Made by a program: the position numbers and the translations under genes. Under the pieces are notes generated by a model. That model was not told the origin of the DNA, did no database searches, and worked only from the letters and a program-made list of their open reading frames with translations. Shown here piece after piece: positions 5,198 to 28,249 of a stretch of DNA of 28,249 nt. The stretch is taken from the NCBI GenBank assembly GCA_051117555.1, contig JBNPEG010000200.1:1-28249 (forward strand), written 5' to 3'. This DNA comes from Elainellaceae cyanobacterium. GTDB lineage: Bacteria > Cyanobacteriota > Cyanobacteriia > CAZCXK01. Numbering within the stretch: position 1 is the first letter of the stretch; the number at the start of each line of letters is the position of its first letter.

Positions 5198-5227
5198 GCG
5201 GCCTCTACGGGGTTTATTTTTTTGTTA

Positions 5228-6967: not shown

Positions 6968-7143
6968 GTGGTGAGCCCCCGCGCCGTGGGGTATGTATTT
7001 AGCGTAACGCCCTAGAGATCCCCCTAAATCCCCCTTGAAAAGGAGGACTTCAACACCCTGTAAATAGCCCCCTTAAAAAGGGGGCAGCGACAGCGGGGGA
7101 GCTCACACATGCGCTAAACGCATACGGCGCGGGGGCTCACCAC
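6968..7143. mobile_element. Nested palindromic MITE/REP-like element
   Basis: Outer perfect 20-bp IR GTGGTGAGCCCCCGCGCCGT (6968-6987/7124-7143); second IR GTATGTATTTAGCG/CGCTAAACGCATAC; core CCCCCTT-AAAAGGGGG hairpins common in cyanobacteria. Confidence 0.7.
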
Positions 7144-7240
7144 ACAAACCTAAGCCCAGAGGGCTATATTCATTATCCTATCGATCGCGCCTTAGAGTGT
7201 CGGGGATGTAGCAAAGCGTCAAGAAAGGACGAGTTTTGAA

Positions 7241-7292
7241 TGCATTCGACACGCATTCGACGCGCATTCGATCATGCATTCGATCATGCATC
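7241..7292. repeat. Short tandem repeat GCATTCGA(N3-4), 4 copies plus a partial
   Basis: gcattcgacac gcattcgacgc gcattcgatcat gcattcgatcat gcatc. Confidence 0.75.
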
Positions 7293-7366
7293 ACACCGAT
7301 ACAGCGTCGTTACAGCCTGCATGCTAGACTGCAAACCTGCAACGGGAGAGGAGTGAGGAGTATTGG

Positions 7367-8587: not shown

Positions 8588-8626
8588 ATTAGACCCTGAC
8601 CCCCCGTCAGAGTTTTTGGATAGGGC

Positions 8627-10063: not shown

Positions 10064-10145
10064 GAAAGCCTTTAGGTAAGAAGAATTTGGGTCGTCATAC
10101 CTTATAAATTAATAAATCGACACATTTGTTACAAGTTTCTGCTCA

Positions 10146-11321: not shown

Positions 11322-11701
11322 GATGCTAAGACAAAACCGCCCAAAATCTTAATCCTGGTCTACTGAAGAATGCTGAAACGCACCCAGGAGTCGGCGATCG
11401 CCAACCATGGGCACTGTCATGCTAAACCGTCGTTTCATAGGGTATCGTAAGTCTTGACACCGGTTTTACTCTGGTCAGAAAAAGCTACATAAAATCTACA
11501 TATCGGGTATCGATTGGCGATCGCAACCGCTTTACAGCCGATCAGCGAAACCGCTATCGTACAGCTTCAGAGGAAAGATGATTTGAATCATAGTCGAAAA
11601 CCAAAATCGACAAGGCTAGAATAATGCCGCATGAGTAAATTCGATTCGGATATGCGTCAATCAGGATGGAATTGCTAACGGAGGCGACGGCAACTCGCCC
11701 A

Positions 11702-11729: not shown

Positions 11730-11774
11730 ACGTCTGATATCACCCCAAGTGAATGGTGTTTGAAAGGAGTGAGA

Positions 11775-14700
11775 ATGGGTGATCCCATATTTGAGAATCA
11801 GCCCACCCAACGGGATATCGCACATCAGGAGACAACATCCGCACATCAGCAACCGCATCAGGAGAATCGAGAAACAGCGCTAAAAACCGGGCAGTCAGTC
11901 AGAGTCCATCGGCAGGCGATCGCCCACGGAGAGCCATTTCCTGACCATTTGGATGCGCCAACCACCCTGCCTGAGGTTCTCTATCGGGCTGCTCAGCGTT
12001 CAACAGGGATTCTCTATGTGCATGCGGATGGCACCGAAACCTGTCAGCCCTATTCCGAATTGCTCGACCGCGCAGAACGAATTCTGATGGGCTTGAGAAA
12101 TCGGGGGATTGCGCCTCAGACGCCGGTAATTGTGCAATGTTCTCGCAGTCTAGACGGGGTGAGTGCATTGTGGGGCTGCATCTTGGGGGGATTTGTCCCC
12201 GTGCCGATTGCCCCTGCTCCAGATTTCACCCTCGCCCCCCATAACGCGAATGTGCTGCTGAATGCGCTTCAGCTTCTAGAAAACCCGGTGATATTGACGG
12301 ATGAAACGTTACAGCCTGCGATCGCCACGGTTTTGAGTCGGGCAGCAGATTCGTCAGCCGTGTCGTCCGTGTCGGTGATGACGATTGAGGCATTGAGCCG
12401 AGAGAGTAGTCATGACGGGGGCGATCGCACGCCCCACCCCCGCCAGCCAGACGACCTGGCGCTGCTGCTGCTCACCTCAGGCAGTACGGGCGTGCCGAAG
12501 GGGGTGATGCTCAGCGAGCGGAATGTGCTGTCGAGTGCCTATGGCATGTCGAGCGTGAACGGCTTGACAGAAGCAAGCATCACTCTCAACTGGATGCCGT
12601 TGGAGCATGTCGCCAGCCTGGTGATGTTTCATGTCACAGAAGTGTATTTGGGCTGTCAGCAAATTCACGTCGCTAACGACCTCGTGCTGCAAAATCCGCT
12701 CAGGTGGCTAGATTTGATCGAACAGTATCGAGTCACGGCAACCTGGGCACCCAATTTTGCCTATGGTTTAGTAACTGATCAGGCGGAAACGATTCGTCAG
12801 CGACAGTGGGATCTATCCTCGATTCGGTGGATGGGGAACGGTGCAGAAGCGGTGGTGGGTAAAACAACCCGGCAGTTTCTCGACCTGCTGATTCCTCATG
12901 GGCTAGCAGATGGGACGGTCAGTCCGGGCTATGGCATGTCGGAAACCTGTTCCGGAATTGTCCATTCTCACCAGTTTTCGCTGCAATCCACGACGGACGA
13001 CGATGCGTTTGTCGAAGTAGGCACGCCGATTCCAGGGGTGTCAGTGCGAATTGCAGATGGATCGAATCAGGTGGTTGACGAGGGGGCGATCGGTCGCCTC
13101 CAAGTCAGCGGATTGACGGTAATGACGGGCTACTACAACCGCCCCGATCTGAATGCAGAGGTTTTTACGGCGGATGGCTGGTTTGACACGGGCGACCTGG
13201 GCATGATCCGCGATGGGCGGCTGACGATTACCGGACGGCAGAAAGATGTGATTGTCATCAACGGGGTCAACTATTACAGCCACGAGATTGAGTCTGTGGT
13301 TGAAGAATTAGACGGGGTGGAGGTGTCGTTTACGGCAGCCTGCGGCGTTCGGCAGGCAAATGGTTCGAGCGATCGCCTCGCTATTTTCTTTCATCCCTCC
13401 CAGGCCGAGAATAGTGGAGGAGAATTTGGAGAGGAGGCTGGAGAAAAAAATCTTGCCTCTGTGCTGCGGCTCATCCGTACGCGAGTGATGAGCACCCTCG
13501 GCATCAACCCCGACTATTTAATTCCGGTGGCTCGGCAGGTAATTCCCAAAACGGCGATCGGCAAGATTCAGCGGCAGCAGCTTAGCCAACGATTTGAGCA
13601 GGGAGAATTCGACGAGACGGTGCACCGAGTTCGGGACGTGCTCATGCAGCAAACTCGCCATGCCGCGCCTGGTAGCCATCTAGAACAGCAGATTGCCAAA
13701 ATCTGGCAAGACGTGTTGCAGGTCGAACCTGTCGGCATCCACGATAATTTCTTTGAACTGGGGGGCAATTCTCTGCGGCTGATGCAGGTGCTGCATCGGC
13801 TGCAAACCAGCTTGAATTGCCAACTATCGGTAGTGGATCTGTTCCAATATCCCACGATTGAAACGTTGGCTCGCCTGTGCAAAGCACGTATCGCCCGCCA
13901 TTTCAGCCCAGATTTGAATCCAGCACCTTTAGCATCCAGTCCCCCTCTCCGTCCGCGAACCCGACGAGCCGCTCATTCAGGCGTAGCGGTAATTGGCATG
14001 GCGTGCCGATTTCCGGGGGCAGCTAATTTGGAGGAATTCTGGAAAAACCTGTGCAATGGCGTCGAGTCGATTCAATTCTTCACTGACGACGAACTACGGG
14101 CATCGGGCGTCGATCCGCAAGTACTCAGCCATCCCGACTATGTGAAAGCCAGCCCAATTTTGGACGACATCGAGAGCTTTGATGCAGGCTTCTTCGGCTA
14201 TAGCCCTAAAGAAGCAGAGCTAATCGACCCGCAGCAGCGTCTGTTGCTAGAGTGCGCCTGGGAAAGTCTAGAACATGCTGGATATGACCCGCTTACCTAT
14301 CCAGGAGCCATCGGCTTGTATGCGGGGGCATCGATGAATACCTATTTGCTCAACCAGGTGCTGCCCAATCGCCATCGGCTTGACCCCAATGATTCCTTAG
14401 ACGTGTTGACGCTGAGTTCGATGGGTGGCTTCCAGATGACCGTTGCCAACGACAAAGACTACCTCGCCACCCGCGTTTCTTACAAGCTCAACCTGCGCGG
14501 ACCCAGCGTTAACGTGCAGACGGCATGTTCGACTTCCCTTGTCGCGATTCACATGGCGGCTCAGAGCGTGTTGAATGGCGAATGCGACATGGCGTTGGCT
14601 GGGGGCGTGTCGGTGCATACGCCGCAGACGGTGGGGCATCTGTTTCAAGACGGCATGATTCTTTCTCCTGATGGGCACTGTCGAGCTTTTGATGCCAATG

Positions 14701-17700
14701 CCCAGGGCACTATCTTTGGCAGCGGCGTCGGGCTAGTGGTGCTAAAACCGTTGGATGGGGCGATCGCCGATGGAGACCAGATTTACGCCGTGATCAAAGG
14801 CTCAGCGATGGGCAATGATGGTGGCATGAAGGTGGGCTATTTAGCACCCAGAGCTGAGGGACAAACCGCCGTTGCAGCCGAGGCGATCGCCCAAGCTGGC
14901 ATTGATGCTGACACGATTGCCTACATCGAAGCGCACGGCACGGGCACCGAACTGGGTGACCCTATTGAGATTGCTGGACTGACTCACGCCTTTCGCATGA
15001 GCACGTTAAAGAACCAGTTTTGCGCGATTGGCTCGGTCAAAACCAATGTTGGACATCTAAACATCGCATCCGGGGTGGTGGGCTTTATTAAAACCGTCTT
15101 AGCACTGCACCATCAAAAACTGCCGCCGAGTCTGCACTTTGACGCCCCCAATCCGCAAATTGATTTTGCTAACAGCCCGTTTTTTGTAAACACCACCCTC
15201 ACGGATTGGCAACCCACCGGATATCCGCGACGAGCAGGGGTAAATTCGCTCGGCATCGGCGGGACAAATGTGCATGTGGTGTTGGAGGAGGGGAACAGGC
15301 AGTCAGCCGTCAGCGGTCAGCCGTCAGTAAACGACAGACAGGATGGTTCCCCAGTGCGATCGTCTCGGTCGCGTTCTAATCCAGCGGTAATTGATTCACA
15401 TCAGACGAGGGGACGCGGGCACGATGCCCGCACTGATGTGGATTCTGCGGAACTGCGATCGCCCTTCAATTCCCAGCCGTTAATTACCCAGGAATTCACC
15501 CGTTCTCATCATCTGCTGGCCCTCTCTGCTAAGAGTGAACGGGCGCTGCGAGATTTGGCAACGCGCTATGAGGCATTTCTCCACGCCAATCCAGACATGT
15601 CGTTAGCGAATCTGTGTTTTACCGCCACCATGGGGCGATCGCACTTTGAGGCTCGACTAGCGATCGCGGCTGATTCAGTTACTCAGATGCAGGCACAGCT
15701 TCGAACCTATCTGGATGGGGCTGATGCGATTGGGGTTTCCTCTGCTTCTGCTTCTACTTCTAAATCCACCTCCCAATCTACCTATTTATCCCGTCGTCAA
15801 ATCGCCTTTCTTTTCACCGGGCAAGGCTCCCAATATCTCGGCATGGGGAAGGAGCTTTATGAAACCCAGCCCATCTTTCGCCAAACCCTGGACGATTGTG
15901 ACACCATCCTACGTCCTCTGCTGGGTCAGTCTCTACACGACATTCTCTTCCCCCCTCCCTCCCTCCCTCACCTCCCCACTCCCCCCCTCCTTCACCAAAC
16001 CCAATACACCCAACCCGCAATCTTCGCCGTCGAATATGCCCTCCACCAAGTCTGGACATCGTGGGGCATCGAGCCGTCAATCGTCATGGGGCACAGCATT
16101 GGCGAATATGTGGCAGCCTGTGTTGCGGGGGTATTTAGCCTAGAAGATGGACTGAAGCTGGTGGCAGCGCGGGGTCGGCTGATGCAAGCATTGCCACCAG
16201 GAGGGATGGTAGCCGTGATGGCGGACGAAAACGTAGTGAATGGGGCGATCGCCTCCTATCCTGACCTGTCGATTGCAGCGATCAATGCGCCTCAAAACAT
16301 CGTTATTTCAGGTGCGTCAGATTCTCTGGAAGCCGTCTGTGAAACACTGGCGTCTCAGGATATAAAAGTGATTCCGCTCATCGTCTCCCATGCGTTCCAT
16401 TCCTCGATGATGGAACCGATGCTTGCGGAGTTTAAACAGGTTACACGGGCGATCGCCTTTGATATACCTCGGCTCGATTTGATCTCTAATCTTACGGGAG
16501 AATTGGCGACATCTGATATTGCTACTCCCGACTATTGGTGTGCCCATATCCGGCAGCCTGTGCGGTTTTCGGCGGGTATGGAAACGCTCCGCCAGCTTGG
16601 ATATGAGACGTTTCTCGAATGCGGCGCAAAACCCATTTTGCTCGGCATGGCTCGGCAGTGGGCAGACCAGAGTGAACGAAGTATTTCCCAGCCTCACGCA
16701 GTAACCGGATTAGCGAGTTTGCAGCCCAAACAAGCCGACTGGCAGTCGATGCTTTCTAGCTTGGGCAGATTATACGCGCAAGGCTGGTCGGTCAACTGGC
16801 ATGCAGTGCATCATGGGGAATCGTGTTGCCGAATTCCGGTGCCGACCTATCCCTTTCAGCGGCAGCGCTACTGGCTGGATGTACCGCGCCGATTGGATAG
16901 AAGATTTGACAGTGGATTGAATGGTGGATTGAATGGTGGATTGAATGGTGGATTGAATGGTGGATTGAATGGTGGATTGGATAGCGGTTTGGATAGAAGG
17001 ATTGATGTCTGTGGAGGGCTTGGTAATACCAAGCCCCTACAGATGCCGGATGCTCGACATTCATTATTGGGAAACCGTTTTTCGTCTGCACTCAAAGATG
17101 TTGTATTTGAATCCCATCTCTCCTCGGATGCGCCCGCGTTCCTTACTGATCATCGGGTGTTTCAACGCGCCGTTTTGCCAGGAACTGCCTATTTAGAAAT
17201 GGCGCTATCAGCGGGACACCAGGTGCTGAAAACCAAATCCATTCGCCTCAAGGATGTGGTGATTCAAGCGCCGCTGATTTTGCCTGAGGATGGGGTGAAA
17301 TCCGTTCAAACCATTCTCAGTAACGACTCAATCGGCAACGATTCAGTAGAGGCATCATTTCAGATTTATAGTCTGCTTTGTAATGAGTGTGCTCCTGACG
17401 ACGAAACATGGCAACTGCACTGCTCGGGGGCGATCGCCAAAGCTGAACCTGTTGATTCAAAACCCATTGTTCCAAAACCAATTAATCTAGAGCAGTTGAA
17501 GCAGTATTTCAACGAAAGGCGATCGCCCACTGACCATTATCATACGTGCCAGGCCCGTGGCATTGACTATGGAGCAAGCTTTCAAGGCGTTCATGCACTC
17601 TGGAAAAACGACGGTGAAGCCTTGGGTGAAATTTGTGTTGCACCTACTGACCCATCAACCTATTCCATCCATCCGGCTCTGCTCGATGCGTGCTTTCAAG

Positions 17701-20700
17701 TGGTATTGGCTGCTCTGCCTCAGTCGATGCAGTCGATTACCTATGTACCTGTGAGCATCGACTGTTTTCACCTCTATCATGCTCCGCCAGAGCGGCTATG
17801 GAGCCATGTTCAGCTTCGTTCCATTGAATCCGCTCAGGAATTAGCTCAGGAATTAGTTCAGCCCAGTCTCATCACTGCGGACGTTCGCATCTTTGACGAC
17901 CACGGAGTTTTGATAGCTCAAGCCACCGGACTTTCTGCACAACGAATCAACCGAGAAACGGTTTTGGAGTCTACCTCAGCCGACTGGCAAAATTGGCTAT
18001 ATGAAATCGAATGGCGATCGCTCCCTGCTGTCAAATCTGCAAAGCAACTAGACAAGCAAGAACCGGGGCATTGGCTAATTTTCGCAGATTCGCAAGTCGC
18101 TCCGAGCATCGGTGAGCACCTGATGGCTCATCATCAAATCTGTACAATCGTTACGCCCGCTGAAACCTTTGATTACACCGAACACCACGTCCAGCTTGAT
18201 CCGACGAAGCCTCAGCATTTTGAATCCCTTCTCGCCCGTCAGCCTGCGTCGCTGCGCGGTATGATTCATCTCTGGAGCCTTGATGCCGCACCCATAGGTG
18301 AAAACGATTCCCCTTCCCATACTTTTCGGCATCCTCAGATTGGCTGTCAGAGTGCTCTCTATCTAATTCAAGCTCTAATCAAACAGCCTCATTTATCTGC
18401 ATCTTCTACTCGCGTCTACTTCATCACGCAAGGCACACAATCCGTTCAAGGAGAACCGTTAACTCCCAAAGGAATTGCTCAGTCTCCACTGTGGGGGCTT
18501 GGTAGAGCGATCGCCCGTGAGCATCCAGATCTTCGCTGTCGCCTCATTGACCTCGCCTTAGCCCATGATTCCACCATAGATGCGTCTACGGTTCAACCCC
18601 TCTTTGAAGAACTTTGGGCAGATGTCAGGAGCGGTGATGGGGCAACCCATGCAGAAAATCAAATTGCCCTTCGAGGACAGTCTCGTTACGGAGCACGGCT
18701 CATTCGCAGCAACGCATCTACTCTACTTCCAGCAGAATCTCTTAATCGACAGCTTCACATCTCCACGCGCGGCACGCTGGACAACCTCACCTGGGTATTT
18801 GCGCCTCGTCAGATGCCCCACTCCGATGAAGTAGAAATTCGCGTGCAGGCAACAGGGCTTAACTTCCGAGACGTGCTCAATGCATTGGGGCTGTATCCGG
18901 GCGATGCGGGGGCGCTCGGGCTAGAATGTGCGGGAGAAATTGTTTCGGTTGGGCACGGCGTTCAGCATCTTAATGTGGGTGATCGGGTTATGGCGATCGC
19001 CCCGACTCGTTTCGGCAATTATGTGACTGTCAGTGCAGCGTTAGTGGCTCCGATTCCCGATGGGCTGAGTATCGAGGAAGCGGCAACGATTCCGACTGCA
19101 TTTCTGACGGCAGACTATGCGCTGCGTCGTATGGGAGGCATCAAAGCGGGCGATCGCGTGCTGATCCATGCTGCCGCAGGGGGTGTGGGGCAAGCGGCAG
19201 TTCAAATCGCTCAGCAAGTCGGAGCCGAAATCTTTGCCACCGCATCGCCCAGCAAGTGGGATAGTCTTTATTCCATTGGCATTCATCATGTGATGAATTC
19301 TCGCACCCTTGACTTTACTGACCAGATTTTAGAGGTCACCCAGGGGAAGGGCGTTGATTTGGTTCTGAATTCTCTTTCTGGCGACGTTATTGCCAAGAAT
19401 TTAGACGCATTAACATACGGGGGACACTTCCTTGAAATTGGTAAAGCCGGGATTTGGGAGCCTGAGATCATGGCGATCGCTCGTCCTGATGTGGCCTATC
19501 ACGTCATCGACCTAGTGAATGTGACTCAGCAGCAGCCTGACGTGATTCAGTTGATGCTGCGCCGGTTGGTAGATCAGTTGCAGACCGGGCAATTGCAACC
19601 GCTTCCATACCAAACTTTTTCGGGCGATCGCGTCATTGATGCCTTTCGCTACATGCAGCAAGCCAAACACGTCGGCAAAATCATTGTCCGTAACGCATTG
19701 AATTCCACTGACGCATCATCACCTCCCATTGAGACAGGTGGGCATTCTGCTTCTATCAAGATTCGTGAGCATGGAATCTATGCAATTACGGGCGGGCTGG
19801 GCGCATTGGGCTTGCAGGTCGCCCAGTGGTTAGTTGATCACGGAGCCAGACACCTTCTGCTCATTGGGCGCAACTCTCCATCAATCGAAGCACACTCTAC
19901 CATTGCCCAGCTTCAGCAAAAAGGAGTCTCTGTGTCGGTTGCTCAGGCGGATGTGTCTAACCTTGCAGACCTCACAGAAATTCTGGCCCCCTATCAACAC
20001 CACGGATATAAATCTTCTCCCAAATCCACCCTCCAATCCCCGCCTCCTCTGCTTGGCATCTTTCACCTCGCTGGCCTCGTCGATGATGCCACCCTTCTGC
20101 ATCAAACCTGGCAGCACTTTGAGCGCGTCATGGCTCCCAAAGTTAAAGGCGCATGGAACTTACATGCATTATCTCAAACACTTTCGCTCGACTACTTTGT
20201 GATGTTTTCGTCAGCAGCGTCCTTGCTAGGCTCCGCAGGGCAAGCCAACTATTCGGCAGCCAACGCCTTCTTGGACGCGCTGGCTCACTTTCGTCGTGCG
20301 CAAGGGCTCCCTGGACTCAGCATCAACTGGGGCGCATGGAGTGACATGGGGCTAGCGGTGAAACAGGGCGTGCACGATCGATTTAGTCAAACAGGAATTA
20401 AACTCATCAATCCCCAAGACGGGTTAGATGTGTTGGGGGCTTTGCTTACACAACCAAAACCCCAAGTCGGAGTACTACCTATCGATTGGTTGCAGTGGAT
20501 ACAAGAACACAGACAGTCGTCGTTTCTGGCTGATTTCAATACTGATTTTGGTCGTGAAAGAAAGCATGGATCAACTAAACCCGCATTGTTACAACGGCTT
20601 ACGGCATTGCCAGAGGGCGATCGCCCCGCGTTTCTTTCAGCGCATCTCAAGTCTCAAGTCGCCACGGTGCTAGGACTTAATTCAACCGCGCTCGATGACC

Positions 20701-21050
20701 CTCACCAGGGATTTTCCGATTTGGGGATGGATTCTTTGACATCTATCGAATTGCGAAATCGACTGCAATCTAGCCTAGATAAGCCATTGCCGTCTACGCT
20801 GATGTATGACTATCCCACCCTGGCTGCATTGACTGCCTATGTTGAAACTCTACTTTTCCCTTCCATTTCTGCATCAACGTCTGCATCAACGCCTGCATCA
20901 ACGCCTGCATCCACAGAATCAACGGATAACTCACTCAATGCCCATGAATCAACGCCTATCTCATCAAATGATATATCCCATACTTTAGAACTCTTATCCG
21001 ACGAAGATGCGGAAGCTCTACTACTAGACGAACTCAAACGACTGACTTGA
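11775..21050 (+). CDS. Type I PKS: adenylation/acyl-ligase - carrier protein - KS - AT(malonyl) - DH - ER - KR - ACP - C-terminal docking helix
   Basis: ATG at 11775 after AAGGAG. A: TSGSTGVPKG, WMPLEH, GYGMSET, TGDLG. CP1: GGNSL. KS: VQTACSTS, HGTGT, NVGH. AT: GHSIG, HAFH. DH: HRVFQRAVLP, LLDACFQ. ER: HAAAGGVG. KR: TGGLGALG, VDD, YSAAN. ACP: GMDSL. Confidence 0.95.
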   Translation: MGDPIFENQPTQRDIAHQETTSAHQQPHQENRETALKTGQSVRVHRQAIAHGEPFPDHLDAPTTLPEVLYRAAQRSTGILYVHADGTETCQPYSELLDRAERILMGLRNRGIAPQTPVIVQCSRSLDGVSALWGCILGGFVPVPIAPAPDFTLAPHNANVLLNALQLLENPVILTDETLQPAIATVLSRAADSSAVSSVSVMTIEALSRESSHDGGDRTPHPRQPDDLALLLLTSGSTGVPKGVMLSERNVLSSAYGMSSVNGLTEASITLNWMPLEHVASLVMFHVTEVYLGCQQIHVANDLVLQNPLRWLDLIEQYRVTATWAPNFAYGLVTDQAETIRQRQWDLSSIRWMGNGAEAVVGKTTRQFLDLLIPHGLADGTVSPGYGMSETCSGIVHSHQFSLQSTTDDDAFVEVGTPIPGVSVRIADGSNQVVDEGAIGRLQVSGLTVMTGYYNRPDLNAEVFTADGWFDTGDLGMIRDGRLTITGRQKDVIVINGVNYYSHEIESVVEELDGVEVSFTAACGVRQANGSSDRLAIFFHPSQAENSGGEFGEEAGEKNLASVLRLIRTRVMSTLGINPDYLIPVARQVIPKTAIGKIQRQQLSQRFEQGEFDETVHRVRDVLMQQTRHAAPGSHLEQQIAKIWQDVLQVEPVGIHDNFFELGGNSLRLMQVLHRLQTSLNCQLSVVDLFQYPTIETLARLCKARIARHFSPDLNPAPLASSPPLRPRTRRAAHSGVAVIGMACRFPGAANLEEFWKNLCNGVESIQFFTDDELRASGVDPQVLSHPDYVKASPILDDIESFDAGFFGYSPKEAELIDPQQRLLLECAWESLEHAGYDPLTYPGAIGLYAGASMNTYLLNQVLPNRHRLDPNDSLDVLTLSSMGGFQMTVANDKDYLATRVSYKLNLRGPSVNVQTACSTSLVAIHMAAQSVLNGECDMALAGGVSVHTPQTVGHLFQDGMILSPDGHCRAFDANAQGTIFGSGVGLVVLKPLDGAIADGDQIYAVIKGSAMGNDGGMKVGYLAPRAEGQTAVAAEAIAQAGIDADTIAYIEAHGTGTELGDPIEIAGLTHAFRMSTLKNQFCAIGSVKTNVGHLNIASGVVGFIKTVLALHHQKLPPSLHFDAPNPQIDFANSPFFVNTTLTDWQPTGYPRRAGVNSLGIGGTNVHVVLEEGNRQSAVSGQPSVNDRQDGSPVRSSRSRSNPAVIDSHQTRGRGHDARTDVDSAELRSPFNSQPLITQEFTRSHHLLALSAKSERALRDLATRYEAFLHANPDMSLANLCFTATMGRSHFEARLAIAADSVTQMQAQLRTYLDGADAIGVSSASASTSKSTSQSTYLSRRQIAFLFTGQGSQYLGMGKELYETQPIFRQTLDDCDTILRPLLGQSLHDILFPPPSLPHLPTPPLLHQTQYTQPAIFAVEYALHQVWTSWGIEPSIVMGHSIGEYVAACVAGVFSLEDGLKLVAARGRLMQALPPGGMVAVMADENVVNGAIASYPDLSIAAINAPQNIVISGASDSLEAVCETLASQDIKVIPLIVSHAFHSSMMEPMLAEFKQVTRAIAFDIPRLDLISNLTGELATSDIATPDYWCAHIRQPVRFSAGMETLRQLGYETFLECGAKPILLGMARQWADQSERSISQPHAVTGLASLQPKQADWQSMLSSLGRLYAQGWSVNWHAVHHGESCCRIPVPTYPFQRQRYWLDVPRRLDRRFDSGLNGGLNGGLNGGLNGGLNGGLDSGLDRRIDVCGGLGNTKPLQMPDARHSLLGNRFSSALKDVVFESHLSSDAPAFLTDHRVFQRAVLPGTAYLEMALSAGHQVLKTKSIRLKDVVIQAPLILPEDGVKSVQTILSNDSIGNDSVEASFQIYSLLCNECAPDDETWQLHCSGAIAKAEPVDSKPIVPKPINLEQLKQYFNERRSPTDHYHTCQARGIDYGASFQGVHALWKNDGEALGEICVAPTDPSTYSIHPALLDACFQVVLAALPQSMQSITYVPVSIDCFHLYHAPPERLWSHVQLRSIESAQELAQELVQPSLITADVRIFDDHGVLIAQATGLSAQRINRETVLESTSADWQNWLYEIEWRSLPAVKSAKQLDKQEPGHWLIFADSQVAPSIGEHLMAHHQICTIVTPAETFDYTEHHVQLDPTKPQHFESLLARQPASLRGMIHLWSLDAAPIGENDSPSHTFRHPQIGCQSALYLIQALIKQPHLSASSTRVYFITQGTQSVQGEPLTPKGIAQSPLWGLGRAIAREHPDLRCRLIDLALAHDSTIDASTVQPLFEELWADVRSGDGATHAENQIALRGQSRYGARLIRSNASTLLPAESLNRQLHISTRGTLDNLTWVFAPRQMPHSDEVEIRVQATGLNFRDVLNALGLYPGDAGALGLECAGEIVSVGHGVQHLNVGDRVMAIAPTRFGNYVTVSAALVAPIPDGLSIEEAATIPTAFLTADYALRRMGGIKAGDRVLIHAAAGGVGQAAVQIAQQVGAEIFATASPSKWDSLYSIGIHHVMNSRTLDFTDQILEVTQGKGVDLVLNSLSGDVIAKNLDALTYGGHFLEIGKAGIWEPEIMAIARPDVAYHVIDLVNVTQQQPDVIQLMLRRLVDQLQTGQLQPLPYQTFSGDRVIDAFRYMQQAKHVGKIIVRNALNSTDASSPPIETGGHSASIKIREHGIYAITGGLGALGLQVAQWLVDHGARHLLLIGRNSPSIEAHSTIAQLQQKGVSVSVAQADVSNLADLTEILAPYQHHGYKSSPKSTLQSPPPLLGIFHLAGLVDDATLLHQTWQHFERVMAPKVKGAWNLHALSQTLSLDYFVMFSSAASLLGSAGQANYSAANAFLDALAHFRRAQGLPGLSINWGAWSDMGLAVKQGVHDRFSQTGIKLINPQDGLDVLGALLTQPKPQVGVLPIDWLQWIQEHRQSSFLADFNTDFGRERKHGSTKPALLQRLTALPEGDRPAFLSAHLKSQVATVLGLNSTALDDPHQGFSDLGMDSLTSIELRNRLQSSLDKPLPSTLMYDYPTLAALTAYVETLLFPSISASTSASTPASTPASTESTDNSLNAHESTPISSNDISHTLELLSDEDAEALLLDELKRLT
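16912..16979 (+). repeat. In-frame 12-bp tandem repeat (GTGGATTGAATG x5 plus a partial) encoding (GLNG)5 in the AT-DH linker
   Basis: Read directly from the sequence and translation. Confidence 0.95.
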
Positions 21051-21058
21051 TTCGTAAC

Positions 21059-23032
21059 ATGCCCCAAACTCCAGACCAACCAACCAACCTTTCTCCAACT
21101 AAGCAGGCGCTCCTTGCCATTAAGCAACTCCAGGCAAAACTCGATGCAGTAGAGCAAGCACAGCACGAACCGATCGCCATTGTGGGCATGGGGTGTCGGT
21201 TTCCGGGCGAGGCAGATTCGCCAGAGGCTTTTTGGGAGGTTTTACATTATGGAAAAGATGCCATCACCGACATACCGGGCGATCGCTGGGATGTTGACCA
21301 ATACTACAGTCCAGACCCTACTATTCCAGGAAAAATGTATACCCGTCGGGGCGGGTTTGTGCCTCATCTCTACGAATTTGATGCGCCATTTTTTCGCATT
21401 GCGCCGCGAGAAGCCGCTAGCCTTGATCCGCAGCAGCGCCTCCTGCTCGAAGTAGGCTGGGAGACATTAGAACATGCCGGACTATCTCCCGATCGCCTGG
21501 TTGGGAAACAGGCTGGTGTCTTTGTGGGCATTTGCAGTATTGATTATTGGCATCGGCTGCTCAGTCAGCACAATACCCAGATTGACGCCTACCTTTCGAC
21601 CGGAAACACCCACAGCGTAGCCGCCGGTCGCCTGTCCTATGTATTGGGTGTCACAGGGCCAAGTTTGGCAGTAGATACAGCGTGTTCATCATCGCTCGTA
21701 GCCATTCATCTGGCCTGTCAAAGCCTGCGAAATCGTGAATGCAATCTGGCACTGGCAGGCGGCGTGAATCGCATCCTATCGCCCGAAGCCAGCATCAATT
21801 TTTCGAAAGCAAAGATGCTGTCTCCCACGGGGCAATGCCGTTCCTTTGATAGCGAAGCAGACGGGTTTGTACGCTCCGAAGGGTGTGGCATGGTTGCGTT
21901 GAAGCGGCTCAGTGATGCGGAAGCAGCAGGAGATACCATTTGGGCGGTGATTCTCGGCTCAGCAATGAATCATGATGGACGCACCAGTGGCTTGACGGTG
22001 CCCAACGGGCCGGCGCAGCAGGCAGTCATTCGTCAGGCATTGCACGCCAGCCGCATTCAGCCTGACCGGGTCAGCTATGTAGAAACTCACGGAACAGGTA
22101 CATCATTGGGCGACCCGATCGAGGCGGGGGCATTGGGAGAGGTCTTTGGAACGGGGCGATCGCCCTCTCAATCCCTGGTATTAGGTTCGGTGAAAACTAA
22201 CATTGGGCATCTAGAAGCCGCTGCCGGAATTGCAGGGCTGATCAAGACCGTGCTTGCGATCCATCACGACGAAATTCCTGCCAATTTGCATGTTCAAATA
22301 CCCAATCCCCATATCGACTGGCATAAACTACCGCTCAAAGTTCCGACGCATCCAGTTCCCTGGACAGGGGGAGAACGGCCTCGCGTTGCGGGAGTGAGTG
22401 CGTTTGGGTTTAGCGGCACGAATGCCCACGTGGTAGTTGGGGAGTATAGAAGTCAGCAAAGGAGCAGTCAGCAAGGTAGCAGTCAGCTTGAGAGCAGTGG
22501 GAGAGAAAGCCGTGAGAGGGACGGTCAGAGAGAAAAAGACGATCAGGAGACTGAGGATATTCATCTGTTGACGCTTTCAGCTCGAACGGAGCAGGCATTG
22601 CGAGACTTGGTGAGGCGATATATTGAGCATCTAGGACGGCATCCCGATTTGAAGTTAGGAAATGTGTGTTTTACGGCATGTACGGGGCGATCGCACTTTA
22701 ACCATCGACTCGCGGTGATTTCATCATCCATCGCAGACCTCCGAGAAAAACTGGTAGCATTCGACGCCGGACAGTTTCTAGATGGGGTTCATCACGGGCG
22801 CATTCGGGGGGCAGCAGATTTGGGGCAACTTTCCAGCCCTCAATCCGTCAGTCAATCCGTTAGTCAATCTGGCACTGCCAATCGACGACAGGTACTTGAA
22901 GAACAGGCAATGCTCTATCTCCAAGGTGCTCCGTTGGATTGGAACGTGCTTGATTCTAGGGGCGATCGCCATCACGTAGTGTTGCCGACCTATCCATTTC
23001 AGCGCCAGCGCTATGGAATCGAGTCCCGCTGA
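21059..23032 (+). CDS. Stand-alone type I ketosynthase with docking domain, lacking AT and ACP
   Basis: ATG at 21059; LSPTKQALLAIKQLQAKL docking helix, EPIAIVGMGCRFP, DTACSSS, HGTGT, NIGHLE; the KS-AT linker joins directly to the post-AT LPTYPFQRQRY, then stop. Confidence 0.9.
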   Translation: MPQTPDQPTNLSPTKQALLAIKQLQAKLDAVEQAQHEPIAIVGMGCRFPGEADSPEAFWEVLHYGKDAITDIPGDRWDVDQYYSPDPTIPGKMYTRRGGFVPHLYEFDAPFFRIAPREAASLDPQQRLLLEVGWETLEHAGLSPDRLVGKQAGVFVGICSIDYWHRLLSQHNTQIDAYLSTGNTHSVAAGRLSYVLGVTGPSLAVDTACSSSLVAIHLACQSLRNRECNLALAGGVNRILSPEASINFSKAKMLSPTGQCRSFDSEADGFVRSEGCGMVALKRLSDAEAAGDTIWAVILGSAMNHDGRTSGLTVPNGPAQQAVIRQALHASRIQPDRVSYVETHGTGTSLGDPIEAGALGEVFGTGRSPSQSLVLGSVKTNIGHLEAAAGIAGLIKTVLAIHHDEIPANLHVQIPNPHIDWHKLPLKVPTHPVPWTGGERPRVAGVSAFGFSGTNAHVVVGEYRSQQRSSQQGSSQLESSGRESRERDGQREKDDQETEDIHLLTLSARTEQALRDLVRRYIEHLGRHPDLKLGNVCFTACTGRSHFNHRLAVISSSIADLREKLVAFDAGQFLDGVHHGRIRGAADLGQLSSPQSVSQSVSQSGTANRRQVLEEQAMLYLQGAPLDWNVLDSRGDRHHVVLPTYPFQRQRYGIESR

Positions 23033-23084: not shown

Positions 23085-23753
23085 ATGATGCGGAATGATT
23101 TAAGTCATATGAGTTTTACCCAAAATATGCATATTCCTGGTTGGAAACGCTATCGCTTCGTCATGCTGAGCAGCCTCTCTGCGATCGCCCTAATTGTTGC
23201 CACATCATTTGGTTTTCCTGCATTGGCTCAGTCGGGTAGTGCGGTGAGTCAGCTTCCATCTCAAGATCAAGCCGCATTGCAGTCAGGACGGGTAACACTC
23301 TCTGGCAGCAACGGACAATATACTGTGCGCGTGCTAGTCAGCGCTCCGGCTGCTACGGCATGGAGTGTTCTCACGGATTACAATAATTTTTCGAGGTTTT
23401 TCCCAAGCGTGGCAGAGAGCCGACTTTTGCGCTCCGACGGCAATCAGCGAGTATTTGAACAGATCAATGTCATTAGAATCTTTCCCATTAGCCGCCGAAG
23501 CCGAATTGTGATTGCGGCAACAGAAAGCTATCCTCAGCGAATTGCGTTTAATTTAGTCGAAGGAGATGTCGATTCTCTCCAAGGGACGTGGCAACTTGAA
23601 CCCATTTCAGCCACTCAGGTATTGATTACGCATCAGGTTAGTGTCCAGCCTGAATCGTCTACACCCCGAGGTATTTTCTTTAACATCTATCAAAATACGC
23701 TTCAAGATACATTGGCTGCCTTGAAGCAGGAAGCCGAACGGCGCAATCAGTAA
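23085..23753 (+). CDS. SRPBCC/START (polyketide cyclase-like) protein with predicted signal peptide
   Basis: Hydrophobic N-terminus ending in ALA-Q; AWSVLTDYNNFSRFFP and F.LVEGD...LQGTWQLEP motifs; exact start uncertain. Confidence 0.82.
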   Translation: MMRNDLSHMSFTQNMHIPGWKRYRFVMLSSLSAIALIVATSFGFPALAQSGSAVSQLPSQDQAALQSGRVTLSGSNGQYTVRVLVSAPAATAWSVLTDYNNFSRFFPSVAESRLLRSDGNQRVFEQINVIRIFPISRRSRIVIAATESYPQRIAFNLVEGDVDSLQGTWQLEPISATQVLITHQVSVQPESSTPRGIFFNIYQNTLQDTLAALKQEAERRNQ

Positions 23754-23770: not shown

Positions 23771-24616
23771 ATGGGTGCAGACTCGCGACATATCATCATT
23801 ACGGGAGGATCAAGCGGTATCGGCTATGCCCTTGCCCGCCGACTTGTTCAGAATGGCGATCGCGTGTCAATTATGGCGCGGACTCCCCAAACGCTCGATA
23901 CGGCTAAAGCCCAGCTTGAGCAAGAACGTCTGCACTCGTCTCAACAGATTTTAGCGATTCCAGCCGATGTGTCTAGCCAAGAGCACGTGAATCGAGCCAT
24001 TCAGCAGGCGATCGCCCAACTGGGAATGCCTACTATGCTGATCAACTGTGCTGGAATCGCGCATCCCGGATATTTTCGAGAGGTGCCCATCGAGGTGTTT
24101 GAAACCACGATGGCGATCAACTACTTCGGCACGCTGTACTGCATTCGCGCTGTTCTACCCTATATGGAACAGCAGCGCAGTGGGCATATCATGATGACAT
24201 CATCAGGAGCAGGGTTGATTGGCATCTACGGCTATAGCCCCTACAGCCCCAGCAAGTTTGCTTTGCGGGGGTTGGCAGAGTCGCTCCGAGGCGAGCTCAA
24301 ACCGTGGGGCATCGGGGTTTCAATCGTCTATCCGCCCGATACGGATACGCCGCAACTCGCCCAGGAAAATAAGACAAAACCTCTCGAAACTCAGCGAATC
24401 ACAGCAACGGCTACTATGTGGACTGCGGATCATGTCGCCGCTGAGATTTTGAAGGGGGTAAGAAAAAAACAGTTTGCGATCTCCCCTGGTACAGAAATGT
24501 CAGTGTTATCAAGATTTCATAGCGTCATGTCCCCGGCTCTCAACTGGTACTTCGACCGCATCGTGGCGACGGTGCAAACGGATAATTCTCGCCATGCAAA
24601 TCAGGTCGTTAAGTAA
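23771..24616 (+). CDS. SDR, 3-ketodihydrosphingosine reductase (KDSR/TSC10)-like
   Basis: TGGSSGIG, NCAG, INYFG, YSPYSPSKFALRGLAESLRGEL, VYPPDTDTP (KDSR-subfamily-like motifs). Confidence 0.8.
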   Translation: MGADSRHIIITGGSSGIGYALARRLVQNGDRVSIMARTPQTLDTAKAQLEQERLHSSQQILAIPADVSSQEHVNRAIQQAIAQLGMPTMLINCAGIAHPGYFREVPIEVFETTMAINYFGTLYCIRAVLPYMEQQRSGHIMMTSSGAGLIGIYGYSPYSPSKFALRGLAESLRGELKPWGIGVSIVYPPDTDTPQLAQENKTKPLETQRITATATMWTADHVAAEILKGVRKKQFAISPGTEMSVLSRFHSVMSPALNWYFDRIVATVQTDNSRHANQVVK

Positions 24617-26306
24617 GTTCCTGAATCAGAGAAGACTTGGGCTGAGCAGGGTGCTAAGTCTGGCAGTGCCTCTGTATTATGGACTGATCACGCTGCATCA
24701 CGGGCTAAGTCATGCCTACATCGTGCAAGATGATGCTCGACAACACGTTGCTTGGCTACAGCGATTCATCGAACCGCACCTGTTTCCAGATGACTGGATT
24801 GCCAACTACTTTCAAACCGTTGCCCCGTGGGGATATCAGTCGGTTTACTGGATTGCGGCTCAGTTTGGCGTTGATCCGCTCATGCTTGCCAAGATTTTGC
24901 CCATCATCTTAGCTGCGATCGCCACGGTTTATGTATTTCAGGTGACGTATTTGATCTTGCCGGTTCCACTGAGTGGACTGATTGCGACACTCATTTTCAA
25001 TCAGCATCTCTGGCTCAATGATGATCTCGTGTCTGCAACGCCAAGAGCATTTGTCTATCCCCTGTTTGCTGCATTTTTGTATTACCTGATCCGGAATTCA
25101 CTCGTTCCGTGTTTGATGGCGATCGCCCTGCAAGGACTCTTTTTTCCACAAATGATGGTGCTTGAGGTGGCGATTCTCACCGTTCGGCTGGTGCGCTGGC
25201 CTGGCGGTTCTCCAAGACTTTCAATCAGAGCAGATTATGCCCTGTGGGGGGCAGGCATGGCGATCGCCTTGGTAATTGCACTCATGTTTGCTTTGAATCT
25301 CTCCGAATTTGGCTCCGCCATCACAGCCGATCAGATGCGAACCATGCCTGAATATAACGTAGGTGGACGCAATGAATATTTTGGCGTGACACCCTTCAAC
25401 TTCATCTTCAACGGGGCGAGCGGCATTCGTATTCCGGTGTTTCCATCAATTATCTGGGCAGGGTTTGGACTCCCGTTTCTACTCACCTCCCGATATCCGC
25501 TCGCTCGTTTGATAACGAAGCATGTCGAGGTTTTAGGGCAGGTGTTGATAGCGTCAGTAGGCATGTTTTTCCTCGCTCATCTACTGCTGCTTAGACTTCA
25601 TTTTCCGAGCCGATATACCTACCACAGTTGGCGATTTGTGTTGGCGATCGCCGCTGGGCTGGTGCTCACAATCCTGCTGGATGGCGGATATCGGTGGTGG
25701 CAGAACAAACGCCAGTCTCATCAACTGTCTCGACACGATATCTTTTGCTTGGCGTTAAGCGGGTTGATCATCCTCACGGTGACGATTGTGCCCGCTGTTC
25801 CGGTGCTTGTCTTTAAGTTCCAAGGTTGGATTGTGGGTAACTATCCGACGATCTATCACTATTTAGCCGCTCAGCCCACCGATACGCTGGTGGCATCCCT
25901 AGCACCTGAAGGTAATAATATCCCGGTGTTTGCCAAGCGGTCTACGTTAGTTGGACGGGAATTTGCCTTGCCCCACCATCCCCGCTACTACACCGTGATT
26001 CAAGAAAGGGCGATCGCTCTCGTCAATGCTCAATACAGTCGTGATCCATCAACAATTCAGCAGTTTGTTGACAAGTATGGAGTTGATTTTTTCTTAATGG
26101 ATACGACTGCCTTTACGGCTGATTATTTGTTATCTCACGATTGGCTGGTGCATAGTTCGTTTCAATCGGTGGTGTTTGATGCCGTGAATCATCTTGAACG
26201 TGGATATATCCCTGTCTTGGCACATCTTCCTCAGGCATGTGCGGCTGTATCGACGGAGCAGCTCGTTTTAGTGGATGCAACCTGTGTTTCACGCGGAGCA
26301 AGGTAA
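24594..26306 (+). CDS. Polytopic membrane protein, GT-C glycosyltransferase-like
   Basis: Likely start ATG at 24594, overlapping the SDR by 23 nt; many hydrophobic helices; acidic QDDARQH after the first helix; FPSRY motif; soluble C-terminal domain. Confidence 0.6.
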   Translation: MQIRSLSKFLNQRRLGLSRVLSLAVPLYYGLITLHHGLSHAYIVQDDARQHVAWLQRFIEPHLFPDDWIANYFQTVAPWGYQSVYWIAAQFGVDPLMLAKILPIILAAIATVYVFQVTYLILPVPLSGLIATLIFNQHLWLNDDLVSATPRAFVYPLFAAFLYYLIRNSLVPCLMAIALQGLFFPQMMVLEVAILTVRLVRWPGGSPRLSIRADYALWGAGMAIALVIALMFALNLSEFGSAITADQMRTMPEYNVGGRNEYFGVTPFNFIFNGASGIRIPVFPSIIWAGFGLPFLLTSRYPLARLITKHVEVLGQVLIASVGMFFLAHLLLLRLHFPSRYTYHSWRFVLAIAAGLVLTILLDGGYRWWQNKRQSHQLSRHDIFCLALSGLIILTVTIVPAVPVLVFKFQGWIVGNYPTIYHYLAAQPTDTLVASLAPEGNNIPVFAKRSTLVGREFALPHHPRYYTVIQERAIALVNAQYSRDPSTIQQFVDKYGVDFFLMDTTAFTADYLLSHDWLVHSSFQSVVFDAVNHLERGYIPVLAHLPQACAAVSTEQLVLVDATCVSRGAR

Positions 26307-26649: not shown

Positions 26650-28128
26650 ATGGCTTACAGTTTTCCGACTCCTTGGCAGCAGCAGTTCCGGGCTTGGGTG
26701 CAACCCTATCCTGAAGCGATCGCAGCAGTGACGTGTGGGCTGCTCACTCTGCTGGGATGGCTTGCTTTAGGCGGTAATTGGATTGGTCTTGGAATTTGGA
26801 TTTTGCTGGCGGCTTATGTCATTGGTGGGTTCGACAGTGCTCGTGAAGGCTTGACGACCCTGTGGCAAGAGCGGGAACTGGACGTAGATCTGCTCATGAT
26901 TGTGGCAGCGGTGGGGGCGGCGATTCTTGGGCTGTGGCAGCGAGAGTATTACCTGCTGGTCGATGGGGCGGTGCTGATTCTGATTTTTGCGATCAGCGGA
27001 GCGCTGGAAAGTATCGCGATGCACCGAACAGAGCGGAATATCCGCAGTCTGATGCATCTCACACCAGATACCGCGCGAGTGATTGCGCAGGGGCAGGAAC
27101 AGTTGGTGGCCACGCAGCAGTTAAAGGTGGGCGATCGCATCCTCATCAAACCAGGAGAGTTGATTCCCACGGATGGCCTGATCCGTGAGGGGCACAGTAT
27201 AGTGAATCAGGCTCCTATTACTGGAGAGTCAGTTCCAGTGGAGAAGGCGATCGGCGATGACGTGTTTGCGGGCACCATTAACGGTAACGGAGCATTGACG
27301 GTTGAACTGCACAAGCCGCCAGAGAGCAGCCTAATTCAGCGGGTGATTCGTATGGTTGAGCAGGCCAAAACCTCTGCACCGCCGTCTCAGCAGTTTTTAG
27401 AAATGTTTGAGCGGGGCTACGCTAAGGTGATCGTGATGGTAGGGCTGCTGCTGGCAACGCTACCCCCCTTGCTGCTGCAGTGGAGTTGGGAGACAACCAT
27501 CTACCGAGCACTGGTTTTTCTGGTAGTAGCGTCGCCCTGTGCGCTGATGGCAGCGATTATGCCGACACTGCTGTCGGGGATTGCACGGGGAGCGCGCCAG
27601 GGCATTTTGTTCAAAGACGGGGCGCAGTTGGAGACGGTAGGGCAGACGCAGGCGATCGCCTTTGATAAGACCGGCACCCTCACCACCGGCATACTTCAGG
27701 TCAGTGACCTGATACCGGCACCGGGCGTCAGTGCAGATCGGGTCTTGCAGCTTGCAGCATCTTTAGAAGCATATTCAGAACATCCCATTGCTGAAGCAGT
27801 GGTGCAGGCCGCTCAAAGACAGAAACTACCTTTGATAACCGCTAAAGCGGTGCAAGCAGAAGCAGGGCAGGGTATTTCTGGCACCCTTGAAGAAGTATCC
27901 GTTCGCTTAGGTAAACCCATGTTTGTTACGGCTGACTTAGCAGCAACAACTATCGGTGCAGCGTCCCCCATGCGACCAGAGAGAAATGATGCGATCGCTC
28001 CTACTTTACTTCAAGCTGGCCAGCGCCTTGAGCAAGAGGGTAAAACCGTTATCTGGGTAAGTCAGCAACGGCACGTGCTGGGCTTATTAGCAGTCGCTGA
28101 CCAAGTCCGCCCGACAGCGGCGAGCTTA
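26650..28128 (+). pseudogene. coaT: P1B-4 heavy-metal (Co/Zn) exporting ATPase, CoaT-like, interrupted by IS insertion
   Basis: TGES, VASPCAL (SPC), DKTGTLT, SEHP; homology stops after AVADQVRPTAASL, before the TGD and GDGIND motifs; reading frame ends at 28170 inside foreign sequence. Confidence 0.8.
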
Positions 28129-28249
28129 TACCAATTCTCTTGGTTGAGGCTACAGATTCTGCAATTATGAAGGAGCAGAGTTTGGCATATATCCATGGCA
28201 GGGGTCTACCGATTAGAAATTTCGGAAAGTAGCGAGGAGTTAAAACATC
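28129..28249 (+). mobile_element. IS630-family element left end with start of transposase (ATG 28195, runs off window)
   Basis: TA target at 28127-28128, then TACCAATTCTC...; ORF MAGVYRLEISESSEELKH resembles cyanobacterial IS630 HTH N-termini (from memory). Confidence 0.7.

Follow-up and report, generated by a model that had tools for sequence, protein, structure and literature searches.

A gene on the plus strand of a 28,249-nucleotide stretch of Elainellaceae cyanobacterium DNA (contig JBNPEG010000200.1 of assembly GCA_051117555.1; the whole stretch is called the window), at positions 21059–23032, encodes a 657-residue type I ketosynthase (KS; P0001) that has neither an acyltransferase (AT) nor an acyl carrier protein (ACP) domain and directly follows a large polyketide synthase (PKS), here named PKS1. 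Judged from its sequence, the protein is very probably a functional, stand-alone, elongating ketosynthase, real, conserved and catalytically competent, and not the product of a recent deletion. It may dock on PKS1 and condense the PKS1 chain onto an ACP provided in trans, probably that of a second synthase, PKS2, and would then complete, as its third subunit, a three-protein synthase that is conserved in cyanobacteria and makes a sphingoid-base-like lipid. We assign a probability of roughly 45% to the docking and condensation step, and the same to the mechanism as a whole.

The stand-alone ketosynthase

The frame is read through 657 residues with zero internal stops and comprises, in order, an N-terminal helix, the KS, a linker domain and a post-AT-type linker. 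The helix (residues 13–35, LSPTKQALLAIKQLQAKL..., 21095–21163, plus strand as all elements of this gene), a candidate docking or coiled-coil element, was delimited in an AlphaFold2 (AF2) model. It is followed by the KS catalytic domain (residues 37–465, 21167–22453), in which Pfam recognizes KS_N at 37–287 (PF00109, E 5.4e-99) and KS_C at 296–412 (PF02801, E 2.8e-43). The catalytic Cys-His-His triad, which an earlier sequence-only reading of this stretch had described as intact, is complete: Cys209 in DTACSSS (codon 21683–21685), His344 in HGTGT (22088–22090) and His384 in NIGH (22208–22210). A charged, low-complexity linker (residues 466–500, 22454–22558), which has the highest dN (non-synonymous divergence) of the gene and a predicted confidence (pLDDT) below 50 at residues 470–488, leads to the KS-AT linker domain (residues 501–581, 22559–22801; PF22621, PF22336), built of β-α-β elements in the model. 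Pfam further marks the KS C-terminal extension at 415–550 and a CurL-like/RhiE-like KS-AT linker at 502–571. The last segment is the post-AT-type linker (residues 606–652, 22874–23014), which aligns to the post-AT linker of PKS1 and ends in LPTYPFQRQRY; only GIESR separates this motif from the stop codon. Between the two linkers lies a low-complexity SQSVSQSVSQS run at residues ~590–605 (22830–22870).

The same reading had noted that the AT is cleanly missing and that the gene stops five residues beyond the LPTYPFQRQRY motif, and translation, Pfam and alignment agree on this. Neither Acyl_transf_1 nor a PP-binding domain was matched by Pfam in the protein, and alignment with the KS-AT of PKS1 shows that the whole AT is gone, from the GQG region through its end, with both flanking linkers retained. 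No ACP follows the gene either: the open reading frame (ORF) starting 52 nt past its stop codon encodes an SRPBCC protein, and apart from the two ACPs of PKS1, a tblastn search with three ACP domains as queries revealed no free ACP gene in the window. Among the loci where a KS-only gene has no PKS neighbour, the tblastn search likewise found none, save one small ORF 8.7 kb away in locus L014.

The AF2 model (pLDDT 88.7, pTM 0.91) shows the helix 13–35, the KS, the disordered charged segment 470–488, the β-α-β linker domain and a returning C-terminal segment in this order, and it matches KS structures through the thiolase-fold N- and C-terminal KS domains. The best NCBIfam model, NF045894 (PKS_plus_SDR), was rejected as a family assignment, with 785 bits against a cut-off of 1740.

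An old family with decaying acyltransferases

Among proteins of similar length, the 120 best listed in the homolog search, query included, fall into three length classes: 81 have 599–710 residues and the same KS-only architecture of about 660 residues that the sequence-only reading had proposed to look for, 29 have 793–855 residues and 10 have 981–1143. Cys209, His344 and His384 occur without exception in the 110 proteins of the first two classes (81/81 KS-only and 29/29 with a decayed AT), which also share a nearly invariant N-terminal helix and, at the C-terminus, the LPTYPFQRQ motif with almost no change. Lys379 is likewise invariant across the 81-row alignment, as are L642, P643, Y645, F647, Q648 and R649 of the post-AT linker. 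With every residue of decarboxylative condensation invariant, the protein is best read as an elongating KS that would use carrier and loading domains in trans.

All homologs with names given by their sources come from cyanobacteria (Leptolyngbya, Stanieria PCC 7437, Aphanothece, Limnospira, Thermoleptolyngbya, Nodosilinea, Hydrococcus and Vacuolonema), the gene being present, by these names, in Stanieria cyanosphaera PCC 7437 and Leptolyngbya ohadii. One homolog-bearing metagenome-assembled genome (MAG) is labelled Gracilibacteria; its contig nonetheless has cyanobacterial genes.

The longer forms contain what remains of an AT. In 12 of 12 inspected members of the 29 (11 aligned, plus P0062), the serine of the GHSxG motif is replaced, giving GYGVG, GETVG, GDDVG, GWGAG, GEGVG or GHGIG, and the small subdomain with the HAFH motif is missing in all 11 aligned forms. 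A FastTree phylogeny of 143 KS regions, with one short match omitted, two identical rows merged and no trans-AT KS included, separates 119 AT-less or dead-AT rows from 24 full modules with a support of 98, and a quick IQ-TREE search on 60 rows recovers the same split (SH-aLRT 91). On these trees the AT-less and dead-AT proteins are one cyanobacterial family; in the FastTree phylogeny its nearest neighbours are cis-AT cyanobacterial modules, and the AT-less state arose at least five times within it.

The gene evolves under constraint, as the ratio of non-synonymous to synonymous rates (dN/dS) proposed earlier as a check indicates. This ratio is 0.167 against the copy in locus L010 and 0.146 against that in L009, with 0.11 for the KS core, and it is no higher than that of PKS1 (0.217) or of the neighbouring genes; by this measure the KS gene is under purifying selection. 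Had the AT been lost recently in one strain, close relatives could be expected to carry a full module, as the sequence-only reading pointed out. Relatives at 88–90% identity are AT-less too, as are those at 56–68%, and since close and distant relatives share the design, the family is old and its design is not a strain-specific deletion. A separate search of proteins of 1151–3285 residues found no close fused form, its 120 best matches being multi-KS synthases at 39–61% identity; this is weak evidence, because long proteins crowd the list.

PKS1 and its acidic tail

PKS1 (11760–21050, plus strand, 3096 residues) has the Pfam domain order FAAL-ACP-KS-AT-DH-ER-KR-ACP, the first being a fatty acyl-AMP ligase, and lacks a release domain of the thioesterase or reductase type. 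Its TGA stop precedes the ATG of the KS gene by 8 nt, and the protein ends ...LSDEDAEALLLDELKRLT. The acidic C-terminal tail (HTLELLSDEDAEALLLDELKRLT, 20979–21047), identified by alignment, is a candidate docking element. Orthologs with identical domain order were found in genomes G003, G004, G005, G022, G190 and G019. Columns L43, A48, E49, L52 and L56 of the tail are invariant in 8 of 8 aligned sequences, and its net charge lies between -4 and -9 in 10 of 10 orthologs, including those from genomes in which the KS and PKS1 genes are unlinked. Behind its post-AT linker, PKS1 has about six tandem copies of GLNGG (residues ~1745–1790, window ~16950–17100).

Class 2 docking domains are formed by two helices from each partner, and CurL is described without the first N-terminal helix, according to the available text of PMC9113145. 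The sequence-only reading had likened the PKS1 tail and the N-terminal helix of the KS to such a pair, a likeness that holds in part. The 44 N-terminal residues of the KS align to residues 6–46 of CurL (E 0.0047) and, weakly (E 1.6), to the CurH helix of the CurG-CurH docking structure 4MYY, and a candidate coiled-coil helix of the class 2 α4 type stands ahead of the KS. As in the CurK-CurL and CurG-CurH pairs (4MZ0, 4MYZ, 4MYY), the upstream partner would offer an acidic tail after its ACP and the downstream one an aligned helix; here the pairing is predicted from the sequences of the two ends. The α3 helix, first of the N-terminal helices, is absent throughout the family, where only ~12 residues precede the α4-type helix and leave no room for it, and the PKS1 tail has no sequence match in the PDB at E ≤ 10. 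CurL further differs in being a full module with an AT and additional domains.

The second synthase has no equivalent of the helix. PKS2 starts 3–5 residues before its EPIAIVG motif in G000 (the source genome), G190 and G019, where a longer N-terminus is ruled out by stops in frame. In G190 PKS2 begins 3 nt past the PKS1 stop, PKS1 keeps its tail and the helix-bearing KS is found on another contig. With the tail kept although PKS2 lacks the helix, the stand-alone KS is the only candidate found as a partner for the tail.

PKS2 and a predicted sphingoid lipid

PKS2 is a KS-AT-DH-ER-KR-ACP synthase fused to an Aminotran_1_2 domain resembling serine palmitoyltransferase (SPT), a pyridoxal phosphate (PLP) enzyme. 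In the source genome it is encoded on contig C132 (L058:4541–12601, minus strand, 2686 residues) next to genes for an isopropylmalate-dehydrogenase-like protein, a GT4 and a PMT_2 glycosyltransferase. In a PDB search its PLP domain is closest to the bacterial SPT structures 3A2B and 8GUH (E 4.6e-72).

The three proteins tend to occur together. A fused PKS2 is present in 10 of 10 genomes that hold a KS-only gene, and PKS1 in nine of these, the tenth (G001) having a partial copy at a contig end. The first KS of PKS1 is 72–77% identical in G002–G005 and 67–93% in G146, G022, G019 and G190. Of 251 sampled genomes, 244 of them of good quality, the same four, which represent four families, yielded PKS1, the KS-only protein and the fused PKS2; given that 4–6 candidates were scored per genome, so that family members may have been missed, and that related genomes are non-independent observations, this pattern is suggestive and no proof of absence elsewhere. 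Three short-frame KS matches (two in G160, one in G049) were dropped from these counts, their genes being cut by contig ends.

The arrangement of the genes varies. In G003, G004 and G005 the genes lie apart, and PKS1 is there on its own, lacking a release domain and followed by no PKS gene. In G022 and G005 PKS2 follows an HMGL-like gene that diverges from PKS1, and G022 has PKS2-HMGL beside PKS1-KS-SRPBCC-SDR-membrane protein, SDR being a short-chain dehydrogenase/reductase. In locus L026 (Spirulina) the tail of PKS1, the KS, HMGL, aconitase, FAAL, PagL-like, Iso_dh and PKS2 genes are gathered within 12 kb.

Other sampled genomes contain SPT-like enzymes in other forms, stand-alone in six and of about 1085 residues in three. 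In G192 (L073, contig C49), a FAAL-ACP-KS-AT-DH-KR-ACP protein with an acidic tail (2421–10166) is followed by a separate SPT-like enzyme that starts with a basic helix (10179–11498), with a methyltransferase alongside; no stand-alone KS was found in this genome with the query used. This compact pair, a FAAL-PKS and then a stand-alone α-oxoamine synthase (AOS), means that a direct FAAL-PKS-to-AOS line exists, and it suggests that tail-helix pairs of the kind predicted for PKS1 and the KS may be used in related lines.

From the PKS2 locus of the source genome and the genes of the window, a PKS-derived, probably glycosylated, sphingoid lipid is predicted in cyanobacteria.

Neighbouring genes and loci in other genomes

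Downstream of the KS in the window, all on the plus strand, lie genes for an SRPBCC (Polyketide_cyc) protein with a signal-peptide-like N-terminus (23085–23753), an SDR of the adh_short family resembling 3-ketodihydrosphingosine reductase (KDSR; 23771–24616) and a polytopic membrane protein, possibly a GT-C-type glycosyltransferase (24621–26306; its start is uncertain, the ORF being open from 24474). All 11 SRPBCC homologs examined have signal-peptide-like N-termini, as judged by eye without a predictor. The best PDB match of the SDR is the TSC10 structure 8jat (E 1.3e-28, a modest margin over the next at 1.8e-24). The membrane protein has no Pfam, NCBIfam or PDB sequence match; some clusters among its ESM Atlas neighbours have PMT_2 in 15–32% of their members, which is a lead only.

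These neighbours can be followed through 16 loci with a KS-only or dead-AT gene: the window, L009, L010 (the same as G146), L011, L013, L014, L023, L024, L025, L026, L028, L033, L035, G022, G019 and G190. The SRPBCC gene lies directly downstream of the KS in 13 of 15 informative loci, the exceptions being L024 and L026, and L009 stops at the contig end. An SDR follows the SRPBCC gene in eight loci (window, L010, L011, L023, L025, L035, L055 and L066), and the membrane protein follows the SDR in five (window, L010, L011, L035 and L055). PKS1 adjoins the KS upstream in five loci only (window, L009, L010, L026 and G022). In nine of the 16 the KS gene is away from PKS1, often amid housekeeping genes, and in the remaining two a damaged PKS1 stands upstream: in L023 (7147–9889) it is frameshifted ahead of its ACP and separated from the KS by an inserted RHS-repeat gene, and in L024 (83–1894) it ends past the KR with no ACP match. 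In L033 (9998–11928) the KS itself is split over two frames. The damage in these three MAG contigs may reflect assembly errors or decay.

The SRPBCC gene was considered as a marker for the KS and rejected, since six genomes have it with no KS within ~4 kb; in three of five such genomes searched there is no KS match at E ≤ 1e-130. An SRPBCC paralog of 34% identity occurs at G000:C161:12580–13098, and homologs are found in G132, G182, G085 and other genomes. The paralog, and the homologs in cyanobacteria without a close KS, imply that the role of SRPBCC is broader than this pathway.

Upstream in the window, diverging from PKS1, a gene on the minus strand (10146–11321) encodes an HMGL-like enzyme that resembles homocitrate and isopropylmalate synthases in Pfam and NCBIfam. 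An HMGL gene also adjoins PKS1 in L010, G005 and G022 and the KS-only gene in L026. HMGL-like, aconitase-like and Iso_dh genes recur near the synthases (L026:2181–3533, 3570–5312 and 7995–9056; L058:3275–4330, besides the window gene), and they may form a 2-oxoacid chain-elongation trio that supplies an unusual amino or oxo acid to the pathway. Beside PKS2, a PagL-like gene (PF09411) is found in three genomes and an Asp/Arg β-hydroxylase (PF05118, which we take to be the LpxO family) in two (L056 (G019), L059 (G022) and L026), and these genes hint at an outer-membrane lipid remodelled like lipid A.

Two further genes lie elsewhere in the window. A minus-strand gene at 2546–4834 encodes a 762-residue protein with a NACHT NTPase domain and a C-terminal, porphyrin-binding GUN4 domain. 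Near the contig end, a plus-strand ORF at 26650–28170 encodes only the first part of a P-type ATPase (E1-E2 ATPase and a partial hydrolase) with an odd tail, and may be truncated or frameshifted.

A possible mechanism and its alternatives

In the mechanism that we propose, the KS dimer would use its N-terminal helix to bind the acidic tail of PKS1, and a saturated acyl chain would move from the last ACP of PKS1 to Cys209. The chain would there be condensed, decarboxylatively, with malonate on a trans ACP, most likely that of PKS2 loaded by the AT of PKS2. A FAAL-derived chain would in this way enter PKS2, which is probably iterative like SgaA, with the stand-alone KS carrying out the first condensation on the PKS2 ACP and the KS of PKS2 continuing. 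The PLP domain of PKS2 would release the chain by condensation with an amino acid, the KDSR-like SDR encoded near the KS would reduce the 3-keto group, and the exported SRPBCC protein and the GT-C-like membrane protein would handle the lipid outside the cytoplasm.

The source of malonyl-ACP is limited by the AT inventory. A PF00698 search of the genome matched PKS1, PKS2, a PKS fragment on contig C183 and FabD, and found no discrete trans-AT besides FabD, so that malonyl-ACP must come from PKS2, PKS1 or the fatty-acid synthase. PKS2 is favoured because PKS1 lacks a release domain, because PKS2 has no docking means of its own and starts directly with its KS, and because the three genes share one phyletic pattern. 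Such a start is known from iterative synthases. Among the roles offered by the sequence-only reading, use of a trans ACP fits these observations best, and ester or amide transfer and iteration would also be possible. Its suggestion that a head-to-head Claisen condensation makes a ketone for the SDR was dropped in favour of an SPT-type ketone: the SDR is TSC10-like, and the SPT-like domain of PKS2 would supply just such a substrate. As a whole, that interpretation is partly supported.

Several observations weigh against the mechanism. The steadiest neighbour of the KS gene is the exported-looking SRPBCC protein and not a PKS, and the SRPBCC family also occurs in genomes without a close KS. The tail without a PDB match and the missing α3 helix count against class 2 docking, as do the limits of the genome searches against the co-occurrence. 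The translational adjacency of PKS1 and PKS2 in G190 would also fit a direct transfer that bypasses the stand-alone KS, and the own KS of PKS2 is intact, which makes a second one seem redundant unless PKS2 iterates.

A release domain is missing from PKS1, and the conserved gene set showed no thioesterase, no condensation domain and no other acyltransferase. The KS itself might off-load the chain, passing it from Cys209 to an amine or a hydroxyl group of the long-chain base that PKS2 and the SDR produce. PKS2 would then be primed independently, as its direct start with a KS, like that of self-primed iterative synthases, would allow, and the product would be a two-chain, ceramide-like lipid, with which the nearby PagL-like, LpxO-family and glycosyltransferase genes are in keeping. 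We consider this unlikely, and its narrower form, a ceramide-synthase-like enzyme on a ketosynthase fold that acts on the amine of the PKS2-derived base, improbable. Decarboxylative condensation needs both histidines and Lys379, all three of which the family keeps unchanged, and G192 has a single line from a FAAL-PKS to an AOS. We know of no type I KS that makes amides, and no search was aimed at such enzymes. The transfer-only KS domains described in the available text of PMC10849952, such as ngl KS*, carry an inactivating change in the active site.

The only contact predicted for the KS is the tail behind the PKS1 ACP, and the first KS of PKS1, fed by the FAAL-loaded ACP, may not accept a chain from the second ACP. 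The stand-alone KS could take the chain back from the terminal ACP of PKS1 and condense it with malonate reloaded there by the PKS1 AT, allowing extra, fully reduced rounds before hand-over. The adjacency of PKS1 and the KS gene in the window, L009, L010, L026 and G022 agrees with such a helper of iteration; the separation of the two genes in 9 of 16 loci does not, and the route of the chain to PKS2, which has no docking helix, is left unexplained. This role seems doubtful.

A link to fatty-acid synthesis appears still more remote. Mycobacterial FabH links FAS-I to FAS-II, and by analogy the KS might condense the PKS1 chain with malonyl-AcpP loaded by FabD, the only discrete AT of the genome, and hand it over to the type II fatty acid synthase (FAS). 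The many genomes in which the KS gene lies amid housekeeping genes, with no PKS near, would suit this; strict co-occurrence with PKS1 and a fused PKS2 in the examined genomes would not be required by it, and the sequence is of type I, closest to CurL at 53% identity. It is very improbable that the protein is a non-catalytic adaptor that only bridges the PKS1 tail to PKS2 or to membrane machinery: its interaction surfaces (helix, linker domain and post-AT linker) are conserved, but so are the catalytic residues, in 110 of 110 proteins, with a dN/dS of 0.11 in the KS core. A recent strain-specific deletion, or a pseudogene remnant of a full module, is hardly credible, for although the AT is excised precisely between two linkers, the same design recurs in 81 protein clusters from many cyanobacterial genera that form one clade under purifying selection, and among the 120 best proteins of 1151–3285 residues no relative exceeds 61% identity.

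Implications and comparison with known systems

A catalytically complete KS that shed its AT, never had an ACP and was kept across cyanobacterial families would represent, in a lineage of the cis-AT type, a natural case of a free, docked subunit for condensation. Should it link a modular PKS with one that has no docking element and is probably iterative, it is an example of how synthases of two kinds can be connected, which would be useful to PKS engineers. The series from intact AT through dead AT to no AT illustrates how a KS-linker architecture like that of trans-AT systems can arise from cis-AT ancestors. From the proposed pathway, PKS-derived sphingoid lipids are also expected in several cyanobacterial lineages; in bacteria, this class was first shown in 2025. 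Were the ceramide-synthase-like reading true, cyanobacteria would make glycosylated, PKS-derived envelope lipids that resemble sphingolipids and have two chains, by a route without parallel in the ceramide synthesis known from bacteria or eukaryotes.

Sphingolipids derived from a PKS are already known, and so are KS-linker units and class 2 docking. What appears new is a free, candidate-docked, catalytically complete KS of cis-AT descent with a visible series of AT decay, and the conserved way in which it is associated, in cyanobacteria, with a FAAL-PKS and a PKS-SPT fusion. No published account of such a KS, or of PKS-derived sphingoid lipids in cyanobacteria, was found in a search that left most subscription journals and the supplements of PMC12134224 outside its reach. 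The KS family is not described in the available text of Calteau et al. 2014 (PMC4247773), FAALPred (PMC12820801) or Milano et al. 2013 (PMC3870968), the last of which notes SPT-like domains in PKS lines, including an AMP-binding enzyme of Synechococcus PCC 7002.

In architecture, the protein resembles the KS-linker units of trans-AT synthases (bacillaene PksJ KS2, 4NA1; PksL KS6, 5E5N; Brevibacillus C0ZGQ5 KS2, 4Z37), which have the same KS, AT-less linker domain and C-terminal strand running back to the KS. Foldseek comparison of the model with 4Z37, 4NA1, 5E5N and 4ZDN gives target-normalised TM-scores of 0.90–0.94 over the whole chain at 36–38% identity, and sequence alignments to these units cover KS residues 36–655. 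The nearest solved structure by sequence is nevertheless the cis-AT CurL KS-AT (53% identity). This combination of a cis-AT sequence and a trans-AT-like fit over the whole chain indicates that a KS of cis-AT descent has reached the trans-AT architecture. Unlike those units, which belong to multimodular chains, it is a free protein, and the genome has no gene for a dedicated trans-AT.

Condensation with carrier and loading domains in trans is known from PfaC of polyunsaturated fatty acid synthases and from mycobacterial FabH; these belong to other KS subfamilies with other partners, and the likeness is one of logic only. With the non-elongating KS0 or KS* domains, such as that of the ngl cluster of Nostoc punctiforme, the protein shares the absence of an ordinary extension module after the KS. 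As far as the available text of PMC10849952 describes them, these domains carry an inactivating active-site change, whereas the Cys, both His and the Lys are kept here in every member examined; the hallmark of KS0, a lost catalytic His or Cys, is not seen, HGTGT and NIGH being intact.

The closest known system is SgaABC of Pseudomonas fluorescens MYb115, in which SgaA (an iterative type I PKS), SgaB (an SPT) and SgaC (KDSR-like) lead to C24–C28 sphinganines and phosphoglycerol sphingolipids (PMC12134224, Nat Commun 2025). The available part of that article makes no mention of a stand-alone KS, and its main text does not contain the word cyanobacteria. In both systems, as far as that text describes SgaABC, a type I PKS feeds an acyl chain to an SPT-type PLP enzyme, with a KDSR-like SDR encoded nearby, and the structures nearest to the PLP domain of PKS2, 3A2B and 8GUH, are SPT structures named there. 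The predicted cyanobacterial system differs in that the SPT-like enzyme is fused to PKS2, in the exported SRPBCC protein and the GT-C and GT4 genes, and in the additional FAAL-primed PKS1 with its stand-alone KS.

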